Part shown: positions 2,693-57,120 of the stretch, piece after piece
Position numbering within the stretch: position 1 is the stretch's first letter
How the letters are laid out: each line of letters opens with the position of its first letter
Source of the DNA: Candidatus Campbellbacteria bacterium
GTDB lineage: Bacteria > Patescibacteriota > Minisyncoccia > Phycocordibacterales > CSBR16-193
Assembly (NCBI GenBank): GCA_007125155.1
Contig: SLDR01000028.1
Coordinates: forward strand, 1-57,120
Direction of reading: 5' to 3'
Length of the DNA stretch: 57,120 nucleotides
Position numbers and translations under genes: made by a program
Notes under the pieces: model-generated
What the model saw: only the letters and a program-made list of their open reading frames with translations
Told to the model about the DNA's origin: nothing
The model's database searches: none

Positions 2693-3817
2693 TTCGGCAT
2701 CAATCTATATAATTTAAATATTTTTAGTAAAAAAAGAAAAAAACTCTAAAATTTGGCAAAATCATCAAATTAATATGTTCACTCAAATGGATCGTGATCT
2801 CTTAATTGATATCTATATTTTGATCTCCCGAATACCACATTCGCCCAGATCGAACAAGATTAAGTCCATCAAAAGACCTTAAAACTAGATCAAGAATATT
2901 TTCACTACATTAAAACAACGGCAAAATTACCTCAAAACTAAAGATCTCGGATATAGATAAAAATATAAATGGGTCTGATCCATGAATATTATCAATTCAT
3001 ATATAACGTTCTTTGTGTCAATACCGATACATAAATTTGAGTTAATGCATAATTTATAACAGAGACTTCAAAAAAAGACCGCCAAGATCAATAAATTTTA
3101 TAAATCGAAGTCCTTACATGAGCTACCGATATGATCACAAAAGACACCATAATGGAAGGTGAGCTATCAGGATTTTTAAATATTAAGATCAAAATATTTT
3201 CGGGCGACCCCGATCCCGGAGAAACACAAAACCAAGACAAGCAATGTGTTGTGCATGTGCGTGAAACGGTCATTAAATTACTTTTAACTTATCGCGATAT
3301 TCAGCTCTACCCCCCCCTCCACCTTTTTTTAAAAGATCGCCCACTTGATTTTCAGCAAACATTATGTTGCTATTTAATTCTGGCTTAAGTTCCGATACGG
3401 CCGAGATACAGCCTAGATAAGCTATTTATTCTGAAATAATATTCTCCATATCGCAACTTTTAATCCGGATGGGGAATCAAATAATCAGCACATAGGAACG
3501 TGTTTTATTGAAACACAATAACAACAATCGTGCTTAGACCGAATAATCAGACATCTACGGTTCCGGCTTCTGTAAAGACCCTTGATCTGAATTCTGCTTG
3601 GTATCTCAATTAGCCAACCACCTTTTGCGACACCTTGACTTCCGGTCAAAATATTTAAGATGTCCGATCAAATCGCAGCCACTGACAATAAAAGCTTTGA
3701 ATACAATCACGGGCCCGTTCGTATTGCGATCTTTAATATCCAAAATACCTTTTCCTAAACAAAAAAATTTAATAATTCGAGAATATTTATCGATTCTGAA
3801 TCGAAGGATCTTTTAAC

Positions 3818-3846
3818 AAAAAAACCAGGTTGCAGATGCCCTGGTT
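3818..3846 (-). terminator. Rho-independent terminator ending the atp operon
   Basis: The minus strand reads AACCAGG-loop-CCTGGTT followed by TTTTTTT (the A-run at 3818-3824 on plus). It lies about 30 nt after the atpD stop. Confidence 0.7.
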
Positions 3847-3876
3847 CCCAAACCGGAAGTTGTCTTTTGTTTATAT

Positions 3877-6103
<2,227 letters not shown>

Positions 6104-6152: not shown

Positions 6153-7724
6153 TTATTCCTCTTCGGCGACACCGATATCTTTATCATCTTCAACGGGTTC
6201 TTTATCTTTTTCTTTAACAATGTTGGAAGATGAAGATGAATCCTTATTTTTACCTGTAGCAACCTCCAACTCATTGATACCTTTTTCAAGTTCTATCAGA
6301 AGGTCAGAAAATCCAAGATCTTTTGAAGAGGTCATTTCCCTGGCTCCGGCCAGGGACTTGCCTTCTTCGAGTGTTTTGATTATATTTTCACGTTCAAAAC
6401 CTATAAAATCGAGATCTCTATCTTCGGGTTCAAAAAAACGAGTAAAGACAAGTGCCAATAATAGAATTTGAGTTGTTAATGACAAGAATCCAATATTCTT
6501 TTGGTTCATCAGCTCACTTATGATCCTTCCTCTTTTTAGTATATCCCGCGCATGAGAACTGAGTTGGGTCCCGAAACGACTATACTCCTGCTGACGCGGG
6601 TACTCAGAAAGTATATTTATGATACTCGTTGACAGTTCTCGCTGAATTTTATTGTGAGTTGCGTGCCCTACACGGGTGACCGACTGAAGTACGGATATTG
6701 CCGGCTTAAAACCTTCAGCATGTATCTCCTTTGAGAATAGAAGATGCCCATCGGTTGATCCCATTAAGTTTGTGGGTATCATGTTCGTAAATCCCTCCAT
6801 ATCGGTCTCCAGGACCGGAAGAAGAGTGATGGTCCCATTGCCCTGTTTATCATTAAAGCTTCCGCTCCTCTCCATCAGGCTTGCGTGTCTATAGAACATA
6901 TCTCCGGGATATGACTCTCTTCCGGGGAACTGATTTGATAAGAGGGCTATCTCTCTTAGATACTTGGCATGAATGCCAAGGTCATCCAATATTAGGACCA
7001 CATCTTTTCCTTGATTGCAGAAATGCTCAGCTATCAAGAAGGCTGTTGATGGCGCAATACTTATCATGGGCGCCGACTCATCCGAGAGTGCCGAAACTAT
7101 TATAGTGTTATCCATGGCATCATTTTCCTCCAAAACCTTTATCAAACCGGATGTGAAGTTAACCGGTTTACCAATAGCGGCATATATACAAATGTTTTGA
7201 AGTTCTTTTTGATTGATCGCGACATCTCTTAAGAAATCATTCTTTCCACTGTGTATCGGCCCATATATAAGCTCGCGCTGACCTTTTCCTATCGGCAAAG
7301 TGATGTCAACCAAAGCAAACCCCGTAACCAGCTGCCTGTCAATAAAAGAACGTGAATCGATGTCTCTTGCTTTTTTATCAAAAGAAAGTTTCTCGGAAAA
7401 ATTACCTTTATAACGCTTACCGATCCCATTATCCGAAACCACCTCACCTAATGCATTCAACACCTTTCCTTTAAGGTGTTCACCGATATGTATCCTGGAA
7501 CCCTCGCTGTCAATAAAAAATTCTATCCCGGGACTGGCGGGTTTGTTATCAAGAAATAATGCTTCTATTGATCCGGGCAAAAGAGAATGAACCACGGCTT
7601 TCCTGCCTTCTTCATCCACGATGATATCATTAATGCGGGCCGACGGTAGTCCCTTTATGCTCAGAAGGTAACTGTTGACCTTTGTTACGTAACCAACCTC
7701 TTTCTTTATCAGGTTCTCCATCAT
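6153..7724 (-). CDS. atpA: F1 ATP synthase alpha subunit, divergent P-loop and acidic C-terminal tail
   Basis: 523 aa with PIGKGQRELIYGPIHSGKNDF, ILDDLGIHAKYLREIALL and PGRESYPGDMFYRHASLMERS. The tail is ..SSSSSNIVKEKDKEPVEDDKDIGVAEEE. Confidence 0.9.
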   Translation of the reverse strand: MMENLIKKEVGYVTKVNSYLLSIKGLPSARINDIIVDEEGRKAVVHSLLPGSIEALFLDNKPASPGIEFFIDSEGSRIHIGEHLKGKVLNALGEVVSDNGIGKRYKGNFSEKLSFDKKARDIDSRSFIDRQLVTGFALVDITLPIGKGQRELIYGPIHSGKNDFLRDVAINQKELQNICIYAAIGKPVNFTSGLIKVLEENDAMDNTIIVSALSDESAPMISIAPSTAFLIAEHFCNQGKDVVLILDDLGIHAKYLREIALLSNQFPGRESYPGDMFYRHASLMERSGSFNDKQGNGTITLLPVLETDMEGFTNMIPTNLMGSTDGHLLFSKEIHAEGFKPAISVLQSVTRVGHATHNKIQRELSTSIINILSEYPRQQEYSRFGTQLSSHARDILKRGRIISELMNQKNIGFLSLTTQILLLALVFTRFFEPEDRDLDFIGFERENIIKTLEEGKSLAGAREMTSSKDLGFSDLLIELEKGINELEVATGKNKDSSSSSNIVKEKDKEPVEDDKDIGVAEEE

Positions 7725-7807
7725 ATTGATTAATTATACTACCGTTTCACCTTCTTTAATAAGTGGAAAAAAAGATGAGGCATGCATCAACGCATACACC
7801 AAAGAGA

Positions 7808-8338
7808 TCAAAGAATATTTTCATTCATTATCTCTTTTATACGGGATGATATCTTTTTGTATTGTGTTTTTTTCATGCTTTTGAAGCTCATATCGTACTT
7901 CTCGTCACCCCAACTGAAATAACAACCCGCGGCCATATCGCAATCAGCTTTAAAAATTAAAAAAGCTCTTTCATCAACATTTTTTTTGATCCATTTGCCA
8001 ATAAATACAACATCCTCACTCCTGGGTTCTACAGGCGTTTGCAAAAAGAAAACAGGGCATTTTTTAAAATCATCTTCAATTTCTGAAAGAATATCGTATG
8101 GATCTTTAGAAGATAGGATCTTTTTGAACAAATCTTCACCCCATTCTTTTACCGCTTCCTTATTATCATCAGTTATCCGTTTACCAACACAGAATCGATC
8201 GAATCTATCCAGAACCGGTAGATGTTTTTGTCGATCTTTATACAATAGAAATTCAATAAATTCCTTAAGCAAAGAAAAACGACGATGAAAATCAGTGTAA
8301 GTATATGTATTGGAAAAAATAATATCAGAAATTCTCAT
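7808..8338 (-). CDS. atpH: ATP synthase delta (OSCP) subunit, divergent
   Basis: 176 aa, positioned between b and alpha. The C-terminal pattern LIFKADCDMAAGCYFSWGDEKYDMSFKS resembles the delta ..D..IIGG....G...D.S motif. AGGAGGGGG lies about 12 nt upstream. Confidence 0.6.
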   Translation of the reverse strand: MRISDIIFSNTYTYTDFHRRFSLLKEFIEFLLYKDRQKHLPVLDRFDRFCVGKRITDDNKEAVKEWGEDLFKKILSSKDPYDILSEIEDDFKKCPVFFLQTPVEPRSEDVVFIGKWIKKNVDERAFLIFKADCDMAAGCYFSWGDEKYDMSFKSMKKTQYKKISSRIKEIMNENIL

Positions 8339-8356
8339 AAGATATTGAACCCCCTC

Positions 8357-9547
8357 CTATTCGAAAGCCCCTCTCTTTTTGGCTTCTTCAAGAGCATTGA
8401 TTATAACCTCCCTGTGATCATCATGTGTGAGTTTCGTGTTTAATGCTATTTGAGCGGTTTCTTCCACAAGTGTAACTATCTGTTCATCAACAACTCTCAT
8501 TCTGTCACGTCTGTATTCCTTAACTTCCCTCTTTAAATCTTCAAGTTCTTTATTGAACGCGCCTTTAAGCATCTCAATAAACTCCGCCTTAGATGCCGAT
8601 ATGTCCTCTGACACCTTGCCTATCTCCTCATTCATTTGCTCGCAAGATCTTTTACTTACCTCTTCAATGGCACTTGTGGCCTTAAGGACAGAATCCCTCA
8701 AGTGATCTCGCGCTTCTTCGGACATCTCACCGGAGATCCTCTCCAGGTTTTGAGCATTTTCCGCAAAAACATTCCTGGCATCATTGTTCATTTCTTCCAG
8801 CTGTTGTGAGAATTTATGACTGTTGGCGCGAGCTTCTTCGGACATCTCACCGGAGATCCTCTCCAGGTTTCGAGCATTTTCTTCAAAAGCATTCCTGGCA
8901 TCATTGTTCATTTCTTCCAGCTGTTGTGAAAATTTATGACTGTTGGCGCGAGCTTCTTCGGACATCTCATTCGAGATCCGGTCAAAACACTTTCCGCATT
9001 CCTCGAAAGCTTTTCTGGCCTCGGAATTCAAAACCTCGAGCTGTTTCACGGAACTCTCGACAACATTTAAATCCTCTGAAGTTCTATTCATTTTTTCTTC
9101 CATATTCTCTATGGCAAGATCCAATGATCTTTTTATATCCTCGTTAGCCTTATCAAGAGTCGAATCCATCTTTGTTCGGGCTTCATGCAACATCTCATCA
9201 GAGAACTCCGAAACCTTTTTAACGCTTTCGGAGAGGCTTTTTCCGGCTTCCCGACTCAGATCTTCCAAACACTCGGTAAAAGAGGCGTGCATTCGATCTA
9301 TTTCAGACTTTCTTTCGGATAGATATTGACCCGCACTCCGCTCCGCTACCAGCAGTGTTTCACCGGCCTTCAGGCGGGTCTCTTCCATCAAATTTCTCGC
9401 TCGATTCTTCGTCGAATCTATTATCTTATGGTAAGAATTTTTTTGTTCTTCCAGTTTGCGTAAAAGCCAAATGGTTGAAAAGAGTAAAAGGATCACTGAG
9501 GTGATCAAAAGTATCAAAAGCACAGATATTGGGTCCATTTCAAACAT
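8357..9547 (-). CDS. atpF: ATP synthase b-like stator subunit, greatly elongated coiled coil with tandem repeats
   Basis: 396 aa. It has a single N-terminal TM (ISVLLILLITSVILLLFSTIWLL) followed by a long Glu/Lys/Arg-rich helix. The C-terminus IVTLVEETAQIALNTKLTHDDHREVIINALEEAKK matches the usual b-subunit C-terminal pattern. It sits directly upstream of atpH. Confidence 0.6.
   Translation of the reverse strand: MFEMDPISVLLILLITSVILLLFSTIWLLRKLEEQKNSYHKIIDSTKNRARNLMEETRLKAGETLLVAERSAGQYLSERKSEIDRMHASFTECLEDLSREAGKSLSESVKKVSEFSDEMLHEARTKMDSTLDKANEDIKRSLDLAIENMEEKMNRTSEDLNVVESSVKQLEVLNSEARKAFEECGKCFDRISNEMSEEARANSHKFSQQLEEMNNDARNAFEENARNLERISGEMSEEARANSHKFSQQLEEMNNDARNVFAENAQNLERISGEMSEEARDHLRDSVLKATSAIEEVSKRSCEQMNEEIGKVSEDISASKAEFIEMLKGAFNKELEDLKREVKEYRRDRMRVVDEQIVTLVEETAQIALNTKLTHDDHREVIINALEEAKKRGAFE
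8708..8975. repeat. 120-nt tandem repeat (about 2.2 copies) inside atpF
   Basis: Sequence rows 8701, 8821 and 8941 align at an offset of exactly 120 nt (..gcttcttcggacatctcaccggagatcctctccaggttt..). The repeat encodes ARNAFEENARNLERISGEMSEEARANSHKFSQQLEEMNND. Confidence 0.9.
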
Positions 9548-9631: not shown

Positions 9632-10462
9632 TTACATTACCCTGATAATAAAGACGGGTATAAGCAAGATCAGCGCGCTCAACAGAAGCCCGCCAACGCT
9701 TATCAATATGACCAGGAACATGTTAAATATCATCATCTTCTGTATCGACTGTCGAGCCAAGGGGTTCCTTCCGAGGGCCGAAAGTCCATCTTTAACATTT
9801 GCCTTGAAAAAATAATAAGCAAAATAAAAAGCCCCTAGAGCCACCATGGCCGCAGCCATATAACGGGCGATCATTGCCAAATAATGCTCGATCTGCTCAA
9901 GAACGGAATCCTCCTCATCTTCAGCCGGGAAGATATCTTCGTCCCCCTCTGTTGCTCCTATCTTAAGATCGACCAAGAGCTGACCAGCGGGGATCTCTTG
10001 ATCAAATATGTCAAAAACAATATCTGTGGCACCACTCTCGGTAAGGTCCTCCAACGCAATACCAACCAAATTTCGGTGTTCTGAGCCCGCCGTCATACCG
10101 TAACCGGGAACATCAGAAGTGACTATACGGTCTCCGGTCCTTATCGGTCCGTCTTTTAAAACGACATTAACTCTTGCCTGCCCTGTTCTTAAGACCGAAA
10201 CATTGCTCTCTTCATCAGGAATAATGGTCATCAAAGGCCTCTCCACAATGACACCGAAAACATCCGGGCTGTCCACCGTTCGGGAGAGATAGAAAAAACC
10301 TGTTCTGGAATCGCGAGAAATTATATTTCCGGGGACAATTCCTTCATCGCTAACGGGATTAATACCCTGACCCACTTGGGCCGATACCGTATTGAAAAGA
10401 TACGCTGAAACTCCCAGCAGACTCAGTATAATTAAGAATGAAATTAAAGAATTTACGTACAT
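9632..10462 (-). CDS. Secreted/membrane protein: signal peptide, ~200 aa beta-rich domain and a C-terminal two-helix hairpin resembling an ATP synthase c subunit
   Basis: The ORF is 9632..10489 (TTG start); the ATG at 10462 gives MYVNSLISFLIILSLLGVSAYLF. The C-terminus is RYMAAAMVALGAFYFAYYFFKANVKDGLSALGRNPLARQSIQKMMIFNMFLVILISVGGLLLSALILL. It occupies the atpE position upstream of atpF. Confidence 0.55.
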   Translation of the reverse strand: MYVNSLISFLIILSLLGVSAYLFNTVSAQVGQGINPVSDEGIVPGNIISRDSRTGFFYLSRTVDSPDVFGVIVERPLMTIIPDEESNVSVLRTGQARVNVVLKDGPIRTGDRIVTSDVPGYGMTAGSEHRNLVGIALEDLTESGATDIVFDIFDQEIPAGQLLVDLKIGATEGDEDIFPAEDEEDSVLEQIEHYLAMIARYMAAAMVALGAFYFAYYFFKANVKDGLSALGRNPLARQSIQKMMIFNMFLVILISVGGLLLSALILLIPVFIIRVM

Positions 10463-10654
10463 GTGAGATCTAAGACTCAAAAAATTCAAGTGGAGGATTT
10501 TTAAACCAAAACAAAACTCTTCCTTGACATTTATGGTAACATTTTATCATATGATCCAACTTTAGATGTACCCATATTTAAGACTTCGTTTTTTATACAT
10601 TATCTTTAAATTCATAAATATTTAAAATTGTCCCAATGAATAAGTCAGGACAGA

Positions 10655-12283
10655 TCATATATCAACCTTAAAGGTCTCCCTGATGATACCGTCCTTTACC
10701 TCAAAGGGCTCGGAGGTATAAACATTCCTATAGCTATCCTCTCCCTCTTTGCAATCAATGCTTACATAATAGAAACCATTAGTTACGAGTGAAAAATATC
10801 TCCCGTAGGCATCACACACCACCTTATAAGCCTCGTTACCACTATCGACCAGACGAATCCGGACGATGGCAAAAGGTAGGGGTTCCCCGTTTCTCTCATT
10901 GACCACCTTGCCCAGTCGGCGCGGCTTGATCCTGATCATTCTTACAAACATCAGAAGTAAATAGAGGGAAACTATTATAATGTTATATACGGTAGGCATC
11001 AGTAACAAAGCCACGAGTGAAAAAATGAATCCAATATAAAAGAACCAATTAAGAATGACCGCCTTGAAGAAGTCACCATAAGAATAATAGTTAAGTATCT
11101 TCTTATTAAGTTTTGCAAACTCATTCCAGTCAAATTTATCGGGATCCATGGGGACATTCTTTCCGGCAATGGCAACTTTATCGTTTATCTCAAAGATCTC
11201 CCCAAAATAAAGATCGTCGTATATGACATCGCTTCTTTTCCCCTTTAATTTTTTTGAAGGAAAACTATAATTTGTCTTGTTGACCTTCAATCTGTATCTA
11301 CCTGGCTCAACCAGGAACCCGTATCGACCATCAATATCGGTTATCGAGGTTTTTATGTCATTTCCGTCTTCATCTTGGAGTTGAACATAAGCCGGATCTA
11401 TAGGCTGCTTGGTAACACTGTCATAAACGACCCCCCAAGGTCTCAAACGCTTCTTGAAACCCAAAAAACCCACGAACAGAGCCCACAGCCTGAAAGGTAA
11501 TAGAATGATCTCCAATATCCTTAAAGACGAAAAGAACAATGATGTCAAAGTTAAAAAAAATCCCGCAATGATACCCAGAATGGAGACCATTTGAGCCAAC
11601 GTTACTCCGACATCGGTTTGTAAGAATTCACGTGCCATGTCTACGGCTCTACTGCCCATGTACTGGAAAGCCCCTACGTCATGAATAATAAGGTCCATAA
11701 AACTCGTTTCCGACAAACTTGGAGTAACTTCCGAAGGGGTCTTGCTGACAACGGCCGAACCATGCCTACCGATCCGGAGATCGACCATTATCAAGCCTGA
11801 CGGGTATGTTTCCCCATTGGCCAATGTAACAACTTCCTCGGTATCATCCTCGTCTAAAGATTCAAGAGCGATACCAAGAGTATAGCGATGATGACCTTGA
11901 ACGGCCTGGCCGAAGCCTGAAACATCGGATGTGGTTATGTTGTCACCCCTTTCTATCGGTCCGTCCTTTAAAATTACATTGACGGGAGTCTGGCCCATCC
12001 TAATGACCGGAACAGATCCCGATTCGGTCCGAAACATTAACATGGGATTCTCCACAACCACGCCGAAAACGTCGGGGCTGTCTTCAACGGCGGAAAGCCA
12101 AAGAGTATTACTATATCTGTCACGAACGATTATGTCCCCGGGAATGGTATTAAGATTCTCTATCGGATAAGTAACGGAAAGATTGTAGTGAAGAGAATCG
12201 AGGGCGGATGAACCAAGCGGGAAAATGAGCAGAAATAAAAAAAAAAAAACAATGCGATATTTGGAAAAAAACGAACTTCTCAT
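10655..12283 (-). CDS. Multi-pass membrane protein with an N-terminal domain paralogous to 9632-10462 and two carboxypeptidase-regulatory-like beta-sandwich domains
   Basis: 542 aa with signal peptide IVFFFLFLLIFPLGSSA. DSPDVFGVVVENP..VIRMGQTPVNVILKDGPIERGDNITTSDVSGFGQA..LGIALESL parallels the neighbouring protein. DEDGNDIKTSITDIDGRYGFLVEPGRYRLKV and VDSGNEAYKVVCDAYGRYFSLVTNGFYYVSI are CarboxypepD_reg-like. It has four predicted internal TM helices. Confidence 0.55.
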   Translation of the reverse strand: MRSSFFSKYRIVFFFLFLLIFPLGSSALDSLHYNLSVTYPIENLNTIPGDIIVRDRYSNTLWLSAVEDSPDVFGVVVENPMLMFRTESGSVPVIRMGQTPVNVILKDGPIERGDNITTSDVSGFGQAVQGHHRYTLGIALESLDEDDTEEVVTLANGETYPSGLIMVDLRIGRHGSAVVSKTPSEVTPSLSETSFMDLIIHDVGAFQYMGSRAVDMAREFLQTDVGVTLAQMVSILGIIAGFFLTLTSLFFSSLRILEIILLPFRLWALFVGFLGFKKRLRPWGVVYDSVTKQPIDPAYVQLQDEDGNDIKTSITDIDGRYGFLVEPGRYRLKVNKTNYSFPSKKLKGKRSDVIYDDLYFGEIFEINDKVAIAGKNVPMDPDKFDWNEFAKLNKKILNYYSYGDFFKAVILNWFFYIGFIFSLVALLLMPTVYNIIIVSLYLLLMFVRMIRIKPRRLGKVVNERNGEPLPFAIVRIRLVDSGNEAYKVVCDAYGRYFSLVTNGFYYVSIDCKEGEDSYRNVYTSEPFEVKDGIIRETFKVDI

Positions 12284-54985: not shown

Positions 54986-55179
54986 TTTAAAACGATCAAG
55001 TCAAATAAAATATATTGAACGTTCCTTTATTTTATCAATTTATATCAGGTTTTCAAAACAAGTGAGCAACAACCCAAAAAAAACAACACGGGTATTTATA
55101 TCTTCTTCCATCTTAAGAACGAGACTCGGAAGCATTCTCCGCTCTAACATTGGTTTGAGCGCGTGAAGAAGGTATTGTG

Positions 55180-55253
55180 TGCGCGTGCCAGGATTTGAAC
55201 CTGGGACCTCGTCATTATCAGTGACGCGCTCTAACCAACTGAGCTACACGCGC
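55180..55253 (-). tRNA. tRNA-Ile (anticodon GAU)
   Basis: The reverse complement is GCGCGTGTAGCTCAGTTGGTTAGAGCGCGTCACTGATAATGACGAGGTCCCAGGTTCAAATCCTGGCACGCGCA. CCA is not encoded. Confidence 0.9.
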
Positions 55254-55688: not shown

Positions 55689-56579
55689 ATTGTTTACCAT
55701 AAGTTTTTGGCATTGACGTTCCCACTGTACGTGCGGATTTCCCGCATACAGCGAGCTCTAGTGCATTTGTTGCTTTATCTTATAAATTTTTTGCATTCCT
55801 TTAACAGTCAAGTGTTCTTTCCTTCCAATTATATGAATCAATTTACAGAAAAGCTCAAAATCTTTTTGTTTAGAAGCAAGTTTTGGTTTGTTCTTTTTAA
55901 AGAACGGAATGATCTTTTCAACTAAATCAATCCTATTAAAAACCTCATATCTGTAACAGTCTTGGTGATTTTTTCGTCTGTCTTTCTGGAAATATACTTT
56001 TCCACAATCAAAGTATCTTTGTAATTGATAAAGTATATCTTTATCTTTCTCAACAAACTTAACGTAAAACTTTGGTTCAATACGAACGCGTCTTTTTCGT
56101 TCATTTGAATCATTTAAGTTCTTAACATAAACAGTAAAACTTCCTTCACCATCCACAAGACCGACAATGTAACTTGAATCTAACATTAGTTCACACTAGA
56201 GAGAGTCCTTCCCGATCACTATTAATAAAATAAAAAATAGTGGCCGGTACTATGACTCAGCTGACTCCTGACGCTGCGTTAAACTTAATTATACCACTAA
56301 CTGCAAAAACAGATGTGGACAGCTTCAGGTCTCCCCGGGTTACGCATATCTCTTTTCCAAACATCCAATATAAGCTTTTTTGATCTTCCCTATCCTCACC
56401 ACCCAATGATAGGTCGATCTGCTTGCCGTTTTAACGGCTACATACAGGCTGTTCTTTGCTTTCAGATCCTCCGCCATCAACCTCGCGATCAATGACTATC
56501 CTTCAGCTACGCCCCATAGACGAATGGGGGAGCAGATTTTAACTGCTTAGATATATGCGCTGCCGGGCGCTTTTTCATG
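55689..56579 (-). mobile_element. ~0.9 kb intervening sequence/intron in 16S at the position equivalent to E. coli C1400/G1401
   Basis: The 5' exon ends ..CTTGTACTCAC(C) and the 3' exon resumes (C)GCCCGTCACG. The canonical sequence is CTTGTACACACCGCCCGTCA. The boundary is ambiguous by 1 nt. Confidence 0.8.
55758..56186 (-). CDS. Single-motif LAGLIDADG homing endonuclease encoded inside the 16S intervening sequence
   Basis: 142 aa: MLDSSYIVGLVDGEGSFTVYV.., consistent with the homodimeric I-CreI-like class. Confidence 0.85.
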   Translation of the reverse strand: MLDSSYIVGLVDGEGSFTVYVKNLNDSNERKRRVRIEPKFYVKFVEKDKDILYQLQRYFDCGKVYFQKDRRKNHQDCYRYEVFNRIDLVEKIIPFFKKNKPKLASKQKDFELFCKLIHIIGRKEHLTVKGMQKIYKIKQQMH

Positions 56580-57120
56580 GTGAGTACAAGACTCGAGAAC
56601 GTATTCACCGCTGCGTTGATGATCAGCGATTACTAGCGATTCCAACTTCATGAGGTCGAGTTTCAGACCTCAATCCGAACTGGGGCGACTTTTCTTAGGA
56701 TTGGCTCGGGGTTTCCCCGTCGCGACCCGTTGTAGTCGCCATTGTATCACGTGTGTAGCCCAGGGCGTCAGAGGGTCATGCTGACCTGGCGTCATCCTCT
56801 CCTTCCTCCCCGCCCTCTAAACACTAAATTTGCATTAATGTTCAAAGGGCGAGGCAGTCTCGTCTGACACGTATAACAGACGATGAGGGTTGCGTTCGTT
56901 ACCCCACTTAAGGGAACAGTTCAAACCACGAACTGACGACGGCCATGCAACACCTGCCTATGTGCCCGAAGGCCCCCTCCGTTTCCGGAAGAGTTCACAT
57001 AGGTTTCAAGCCCTGGTAAGGTTCGTCGCTTACTGTCGAATTAAACCACATGATCCACCGCTTGTGCGAGTCCCCGTCTATTCCTTTGAGTTTTAAGCTT
57101 GCGCTCGTACTACCCAGGCG

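Follow-up and report, generated by a model that had tools for sequence, protein, structure and literature searches.

The window analyzed here is a 57,120-nucleotide (nt) stretch of contig SLDR01000028.1 (positions 1 to 57,120) from the assembly GCA_007125155.1 of a Candidatus Campbellbacteria bacterium. It contains an F-type ATPase operon in which the position of atpE is occupied by a gene (9632-10462, minus strand) for a fusion protein, hereafter the c-like protein, combining a secreted N-terminal domain with a C-terminal hairpin related to subunit c. Our analysis suggests, with a probability of about 0.6, that this protein descends from subunit c and serves as the ring or anchor in a reduced and divergent F-type ATPase without ion translocation. 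Since the ion-binding acid is absent and no a subunit is encoded nearby, the "ATP synthase" of Patescibacteria carrying the fusion is probably unable to move ions in the usual way. Comparison of related genomes supports the extension of the c-derived anchor reading to an operon type conserved throughout the phylum.

Structure of the c-like protein and its relation to subunit c

The c-like gene starts with ATG and encodes 276 amino acids (aa); if translation began instead at a TTG at 10489, the product would be nine residues longer (285 aa). An identical 276-aa protein (P0001) is present in a public protein collection. The C-terminal sequence quoted in the initial annotation is found unchanged in this open reading frame (ORF). 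An AlphaFold2 single-chain model based on a 26-sequence family alignment has a mean predicted local distance difference test score (pLDDT) of 82. It agrees with the proposal, made in the initial annotation, of an extracytoplasmic N-terminal domain led by a signal peptide: residues 1-28 (10379-10462) form the signal peptide with a hydrophobic helix at 2-23, and residues 30-170 (~140 aa, 9953-10375) form a beta-barrel domain with pLDDT ~90. Residues A28 and Q29 are near-invariant in the family alignment, and this A-Q pair at the end of the peptide suggests cleavage after VSA. The barrel is followed by an acidic disordered linker, EGDEDIFPAEDEEDS (residues 171-186, 9905-9952), with pLDDT below 50 at 174-185. 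The remaining part is the hairpin, also described previously as two helices with an R-N-P loop and reproduced by the model at pLDDT ~88. Its helix 1 (residues 187-232, 9767-9904), delimited by the model, the column statistics and the hhalign register, is joined at GRNP to helix 2 (residues 234-275, 9638-9763), which aligns to c subunits. The loop G231-R232-N233-P234 (9761-9772) is the equivalent of the F1-facing R-Q/N-P loop in subunit c. All these elements are on the minus strand.

With basic residues clustered in the loop and the stretch behind it, and with a highly acidic linker, the protein is predicted to have its N-terminal domain outside and the GRNP loop in the cytoplasm. The predicted topology is the normal orientation of F-type subunit c (AtpE, PF00137, COG0636), likewise a two-helix hairpin with both termini out and a cytoplasmic R-(Q/N)-P loop; the fused domain would be located on the outer face.

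Single-sequence searches with the c-like protein gave little: BLASTP against E. coli subunit c aligned 8 residues with E=2, phmmer against PDB yielded zero matches, and there was no match to Pfam ATP-synt_C or to the NCBIfam c models. The profile comparison with ATP-synt_C suggested in the initial annotation thus failed for the window protein taken alone but succeeded for the family, as both the family profile and hhalign recover c subunits. When the hairpin family profile was run against all PDB sequences at E<=10, 11 of 11 matches were ATP synthase c chains, among them 4bem_J; the best one (E=0.001) was the Chloroflexus c subunit, which shares the GRNP loop. These alignments keep register from one end to the other, with RNP of the family opposite RNP/RQP of the solved c subunits, in agreement with the earlier pairing of GRNP with an ARQP-type loop. 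Distant family members produced repeated sub-threshold full-length matches to Pfam ATP-synt_C and the NCBIfam c models, and three members carry the Joint Genome Institute annotation COG0636.

For the profile-profile comparison, a reference was built from nine canonical c subunit sequences; these sequences were verified by the fact that the resulting profile matches 44 PDB c chains at E<=1e-10. The family aligned to this reference by hhalign with 91.8% probability (E 7e-7, 76 columns), and with 92.9% when 257 family sequences were used (E 4-7e-7, 74-76 columns across both runs). The score of 38.2 is to be compared with 9.3 +/- 2.0 (maximum 17.7) in 100 column-shuffled c-subunit profiles, 10.6 for the reversed c profile, and 13.0 +/- 1.5 for a control with shuffled helices and the loop held fixed. 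Helix 2 by itself aligns to c in register (E 9e-4), and helix 1 by itself aligns weakly. Foldseek superposition of the modelled hairpin on c subunits gave template modelling scores of 0.7-0.82 and a root-mean-square deviation (rmsd) of 1.5-2 Å. We conclude from these comparisons that the hairpin and F-type subunit c are homologous. The initial annotation had allowed for convergent similarity; the profile matches and the two shuffle controls (column-shuffled and loop-kept) make this unlikely.

In every alignment, by HMMER as well as by hhalign, the column of the essential Asp/Glu of subunit c is occupied in the window protein by Ile252 (9707-9709), so that the reported replacement of this residue holds. 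Across the family the column contains I/V/L/A/G/F, and the survey of homologues proposed with the original claim found neither D nor E at profile positions 58-76 in any of 257 distinct hairpin-family sequences. The R-N-P loop is invariant (257/257), as nearly are G41 (256/257), A46 and I50 (both 255/257). Profile position 57, N247 of the window protein (9722-9724), is Asn in 239/257; it is the sole conserved polar residue within helix 2 and lies five positions closer to the cytoplasm than the column of the lost carboxylate. Gln51 of the profile is kept in 192/257. In helix 1, which in the window protein reads AAAMVALGAFYFAYYFF, R200-Y201 are conserved, and A/F/Y stand at the canonical GxGxGxG positions, where aromatic residues had been noted earlier. 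The helix 1 of the family as a whole has an Ala/Ser/Gly stripe and two conserved Phe (consensus A14, S21, G25-F26, F29-G30).

Distribution of the family and operon context

The window protein has 25 homologues in a collection of 5.8 billion proteins, and the hairpin profile retrieves 1267 clusters at 50% identity (E<=1e-3). A scan of one genome per GTDB species gave 167 relatives, 80 of which were taken with 10-kb flanks; the set used for context comprised 85 loci plus the window, read to +/-10 kb around each c-like gene. All credibly labelled relatives, closed chromosomes among them, are Patescibacteria, namely Levy-, Roizman-, Woese-, Ames-, Shapiro-, Gottesman- and Daviesbacteria, WWE3, and Campbellbacteria/Paceibacterota. 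The closest relative of the window is a Campbellbacteria metagenome-assembled genome (MAG), and the loci found come predominantly from WWE3 and OP11-type (Microgenomates) genomes.

In the window, the c-like gene is located 84 nt upstream of a gene for a b-like subunit, followed by delta, alpha, gamma and beta; it thus indeed occupies the atpE slot directly upstream of atpF. The order c-like, b-like, delta, alpha, gamma, beta, epsilon was found in 64 loci. In all, about 80 species-level genomes of Microgenomates, WWE3 and Paceibacteria-type lineages show this arrangement, and in about 70 related loci, as in the window, the c-like gene stands immediately 5' of the b-like, delta, alpha, gamma and beta genes. 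Three distant homologues (27-57% identical) lie directly 5' of b, delta, alpha, gamma, beta and epsilon genes, with no a or c called. Linkage of homologues to atp genes, on which the initial proposal depended, was observed in practically all loci of sufficient length; the genes 5' of the c-like gene differ between loci. Together, the family profiles, the hhalign results and this linkage support the original idea of a c-derived membrane anchor fused to a secreted domain.

No ordinary c subunit is present in the 85 loci: the hairpin hidden Markov model (HMM), which is sensitive enough for ordinary c subunits at this database size, matched fusion proteins alone at E<=10. None of 40 multi-transmembrane (multi-TM) ORFs within 10 kb in the 85 loci and the window is an a subunit (ATP-synt_A, PF00119), and no conserved multi-TM partner gene beside the operon was found across the loci. 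Likewise, there is no second alpha/beta cluster within 10 kb in the 85 loci. An extra ATP-synt_ab ORF in L019 is probably not a second ATPase, being truncated, located beside genes for an M23 peptidase and Obg, and consistent with Rho. The ORFs 5' of the c-like gene in L004 were considered as a possible a subunit and rejected, as they encode a single-TM helix-turn-helix protein and a small secreted protein.

The c-like gene therefore shares with atpE its slot directly 5' of atpF and a similarity extending over the whole hairpin. It differs in the absence of Asp/Glu from helix 2 and of GxGxGxG from helix 1, in the signal peptide and ~140-aa outside domain at the N-terminus, in having no a gene nearby and in scoring below the Pfam threshold. 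With no carboxylate, no glycine motif, a Pfam score below threshold and no a partner nearby, it should not be filed as a functional AtpE.

Some loci depart from the common arrangement. In a Roizmanbacteria contig (L053), two c-like fusion genes, 3124-3909 (plus strand) and 7686-8510 (minus strand), are situated around an inverted alpha-gamma segment. A 573-aa single-TM protein is encoded between the c-like and b-like genes in L021 (10215-11933) and L035 (10232-11950), and three additional small genes lie between b and alpha in L016 and L017. Just 3' of the atp operon, an RVT_1 reverse transcriptase and bAvd were found in L001 (10816-11835) and L002 (10079-11494); this pair is a hallmark of diversity-generating retroelements.

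The outside domain and the remaining genes of the operon

Foldseek comparison of the outside domain with BFVD gave E-values down to 1.6e-9 (rmsd ~3 Å over 142-156 columns), and its PDB matches were 8pkh (E 2.7e-4) and 5wk1, the capsid decoration proteins of phages BB1 and TW1. In Pfam, the family member P0009 reached 27.0 bits with PF23982 (XM1_gp53), which equals the cut-off, and 5 of 26 members matched this model at E<=10; the window protein had no PF23982 match. The domain thus has its fold in common with phage decoration, cement and appendage barrels (PF23982 XM1_gp53, PF09956/DUF2190; 8pkh, 5wk1). However, identity is 14-24%, and the domain described here is secreted and tethered to a membrane hairpin, whereas the phage ones are on the capsid; the likeness of fold implies no shared function. 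A profile search with the outside domain returned almost only the same ~255-aa fusion proteins, which indicates that the fusion is old and stable but offers no hint of the domain's function.

Directly upstream of the c-like gene, a 542-aa membrane protein is encoded (10655-12283, minus strand). It contains a paralogous outside domain (46% identity over 134 aa, E 1e-34), placed on a different, multi-TM anchor with two CarboxypepD_reg-like domains. It is a lineage-specific neighbour, the pair being kept only in the closest relatives (L005-L009), and is possibly a partner of the c-like protein. It was also considered as a disguised a subunit; this was ruled out, given the outside-domain paralogue, the CarboxypepD_reg domains and the restriction to closest relatives. 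A terminator-like hairpin (10629-10652) and a promoter-like site (10599-10626) 5' of the c-like gene, both on the minus strand, come from a consensus scan only and are weak evidence.

The gene for the b-like peripheral-stalk subunit (8357-9547, minus strand) encodes an unusually long protein of 396 aa; its counterparts in related operons have ~230 aa, and the E. coli subunit has ~156 aa. Its matches to ATP-synt_B and subunit B' are weak; the protein has one N-terminal TM helix and a long coiled coil, and both its position and its architecture are conserved in 64 loci. The gene contains 2.6 copies of a 120-nt (40-aa) tandem repeat (8712-9019), at which DNA contigs of the source metagenome break. 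Relocation of the missing charge to the TM helix of this protein was examined, and no conserved charged residue was found there. The delta (OSCP)-like subunit (176 aa, 7808-8338, minus strand) had zero Pfam matches when searched alone; it aligns with its positional equivalents in related operons, of which 48 of 56 match PF00213 OSCP.

The F1 genes vary in divergence. The divergent alpha subunit (6153-7724, minus strand; Pfam ATP-synt_ab 8.6e-58) scores 295 bits with NCBIfam atpA (cut-off 484) and 302 bits with the alpha model of the Mycoplasma mobile gliding ATPase. The very divergent gamma subunit (5261-6103, minus strand; Pfam ATP-synt 2.8e-20) has 48.5 bits with TIGR01146 (cut-off 194). The beta subunit (3877-5277, minus strand; Pfam 4.3e-63) is marginally below the cut-off of TIGR01039 (atpD), with 461.5 bits against 462.85; its P-loop GGAGVGKT and catalytic motif GERIREG are intact. 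The epsilon subunit (2375-2692), recognized by NCBIfam epsilon models at 1e-9, is encoded on the opposite, plus strand. Such an inversion of epsilon is common to L005 and L007-L009, where the spacer between epsilon and beta is only ~0.4 kb; in the window it is 1.18 kb long, AT-rich (GC content ~0.37) and without ORF or Rfam match. On the minus strand, positions 1-2373 form one open frame of at least 791 codons that runs off the window start and has no Pfam domain; it is conserved downstream of epsilon in L005, L007 and L008. An alternative genetic code or RNA as the reason for the ORF-poor first 3.9 kb was ruled out, given the open frame at 1-2373 and the empty Rfam search. At the other end of the window, the 3' part of a bacterial 16S rRNA gene (56529-57120, minus strand) runs off the window end; tRNA-Ile(GAT) (55179-55253, minus strand) is ~1.3 kb downstream of it, and the next kilobases contain protein-coding ORFs and no 23S rRNA gene.

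Proposed mechanism, alternatives and significance

According to the proposed mechanism, the c-like protein would be exported N-terminus first, with the beta domain staying outside the membrane, and copies of the hairpin would come together beneath gamma and epsilon as a c-ring-like oligomer or, failing a ring, as an oligomeric anchor. The invariant GRNP loops would dock the gamma/epsilon foot of F1, and the beta domains would form an extracellular crown on the outer face of the ring. Such a complex would be unable to carry H+ or Na+ by the canonical a/c mechanism and would neither make ATP from an ion gradient nor build one; F1 would hydrolyse ATP instead of synthesising it. In the most speculative step, F1 would be a motor anchored to the putative ring and, where b and delta are present, could turn it, with mechanical or conformational output at the cell surface. 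The retention of b and delta in most lineages points to a continuing need to hold alpha3beta3 against a turning rotor, and if so, the ring with its crown might, speculatively, be the driven element. The broad form of this proposal, namely that F-type ATPases without ion coupling occur phylum-wide and that their F1 turns or deforms a carboxylate-free crowned c-ring for mechanical work at the cell surface, is tentative, and we consider it rather unlikely. In epibiotic ultrasmall bacteria, speculative targets of such work could be the wall, the S-layer or the host contact.

A carboxylate-less hairpin can enter a rotor ring, as proposed here, in the case of Acetobacterium woodii c1 (PDB 4bem_J) and V-type c. 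Those rings, however, contain an a subunit and further hairpins that retain the carboxylate, whereas in the c-like family the carboxylate is absent from every member. To our knowledge, no ring entirely without carboxylate has been described.

Several points weigh against a non-translocating c-derived ring or anchor. The best family member scores ~15 bits with Pfam ATP-synt_C (PF00137), against a gathering cut-off of 24, and none passes. No role is assigned to the conserved Asn that stands five residues away from the column of the lost carboxylate. There is very little evidence of expression: the metatranscriptome of the same sample provided two short contigs, both in the b-gene repeat. In nine loci (L014, L018, L032, L037, L041, L043, L050, L061 and L082), including the closed chromosomes OY969569.1 and CP066686.1, b and delta are undetectable within 10 kb; in seven of the nine the c-like gene abuts or overlaps alpha, and several of their alpha subunits are shortened at the C-terminus (429-434 aa). 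As ATP hydrolysis cannot turn a ring that has no peripheral stalk, rotary output cannot be the function common to the whole family. Moreover, the data lie within +/-10 kb of each gene, and canonical atpB and atpE or a second F1Fo operon may lie elsewhere.

The last possibility can be formulated as a rival explanation: the genome would encode, at another place, the a and c subunits of a canonical Fo or even a complete second F1Fo operon, and the c-like protein would be an accessory or minor ring subunit or part of a paralogous F1-like cluster, as in mycoplasma types 2 and 3. The limited reach of the loci is compatible with this, as are the similar scores of alpha on the mycoplasma gliding model and atpA. 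However, bacterial atpB and atpE are normally located within the atp operon, and the 85 loci contain no second alpha/beta cluster, the extra ORF of L019 being more likely Rho. Subunits a, b and c are present in other Patescibacteria (PMC8672522), but for a WWE3 genome just one, unusual ATP synthase operon has been described (Kantor et al., 2013; PMC3812714), and MAGs of the Candidate Phyla Radiation (CPR) with 'only the F1 subunit' have been reported (Chiriac et al., 2022; PMC9166423); on balance, we regard a second operon as improbable. It is also conceivable that ions are still carried via a non-canonical site, e.g., Asn247, Gln241 and backbone carbonyls binding Na+, together with an unrecognised stator. 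The conservation of Asn57 (239/257) and Gln51 (192/257) would fit such a site, as would the origin of the window from a Na+-rich soda-lake or alkaline sediment sample and the retention of b and delta in most lineages, by which torque is apparently still relevant. Yet Asn57 is near the cytoplasmic end of helix 2 and not mid-membrane, no conserved multi-TM partner stands beside the operon, the b-like TM helix has no conserved charge, and the family also occurs in groundwater and lake MAGs, not being confined to alkaline sites. Since, in addition, the E. coli cD61N mutant is inactive and we know of no carboxylate-less c-ring that binds a coupling ion, this explanation is very unlikely.

Hardly more credible is a convergent two-helix anchor, in which case an unrelated secreted protein would stand upstream of atpF by chance. 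Hydrophobic hairpins are common, the single-sequence searches were empty and helix 1 alone aligns weakly; nevertheless, the profile matches are exclusively c subunits in register, the hhalign score is far above those of composition-preserving shuffles, the loop-kept ones included, the invariant RNP is the loop of mitochondrial and Chloroflexus c, and topology and operon slot are identical in ~80 genomes. Finally, the protein could be a decaying Fo remnant without present function in a lineage losing its ATPase, one of two options offered in the initial annotation. About 40% of Patescibacteria MAGs have no ATPase at all (PMC8672522), and in the family a is absent and the carboxylate lost, with some lineages also lacking b and delta and having a shortened alpha. 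Against decay, the ORFs are intact, the 1267 clusters at 50% identity retain the fusion architecture, RNP never varies and G41, A46, I50 and N57 hardly do in lineages only 25-30% identical overall, and the catalytic motifs of beta are intact. We find this the least plausible explanation of all: with R-N-P unchanged and the fusion preserved in 257 diverse sequences, a degenerate remnant is disfavoured. The other option, a putative repurposed ring component, is the one we favour.

The nearest functional analogy may be provided by the F1-like ATPases of mycoplasmas (the type 2 gliding motor of M. mobile and type 3, MSC_0618-0619), in which a motor of alpha/beta/gamma type is combined with non-Fo membrane proteins for work at the cell surface instead of ion coupling. 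The alpha and beta subunits of the window score strongly on the NCBIfam models of these ATPases. The mycoplasma clusters accompany a normal F1Fo as additional copies and include no c-derived subunit; the window operon, in contrast, retains a c-derived gene together with b-like, delta and epsilon genes and, judging from the loci read, appears to be the sole one.

In the WWE3 genome, the membrane subunits beside alpha, beta and gamma were described as those that 'lack significant homology', and a transmembrane 'putative c subunit' was noted to recur in OP11/WWE3 ATPase operons (Kantor et al., 2013; PMC3812714). This putative subunit very probably belongs to the same family as the c-like fusion; that paper left the function open and did not report homology to c, the missing carboxylate, the outside domain or the lack of a. 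A full-text literature search found no paper analysing the c-like protein and only brief mentions in PMC3812714 and PMC9166423.

In genome surveys, Patescibacteria (CPR) are regularly credited with an 'F-type ATPase', from which it is then inferred that these respiration-less cells make ATP from a proton-motive force or build one. Yet a ring with neither an ion-binding site nor an a subunit may be what a large share of such operons encodes, a share that amounts here to 1267 clusters and, at species level, to at least 167 genomes. For annotation, the family should be recognised as a c-derived subunit and not be counted as evidence of a functional Fo. If our reading is true, the inference of proton-motive force fails for those lineages, and how their membranes are energised becomes a sharper question. 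The family would also be the first of c-rings with zero carboxylate and an extracellular domain on every protomer, and would thus represent a natural experiment on what F1 can couple to.

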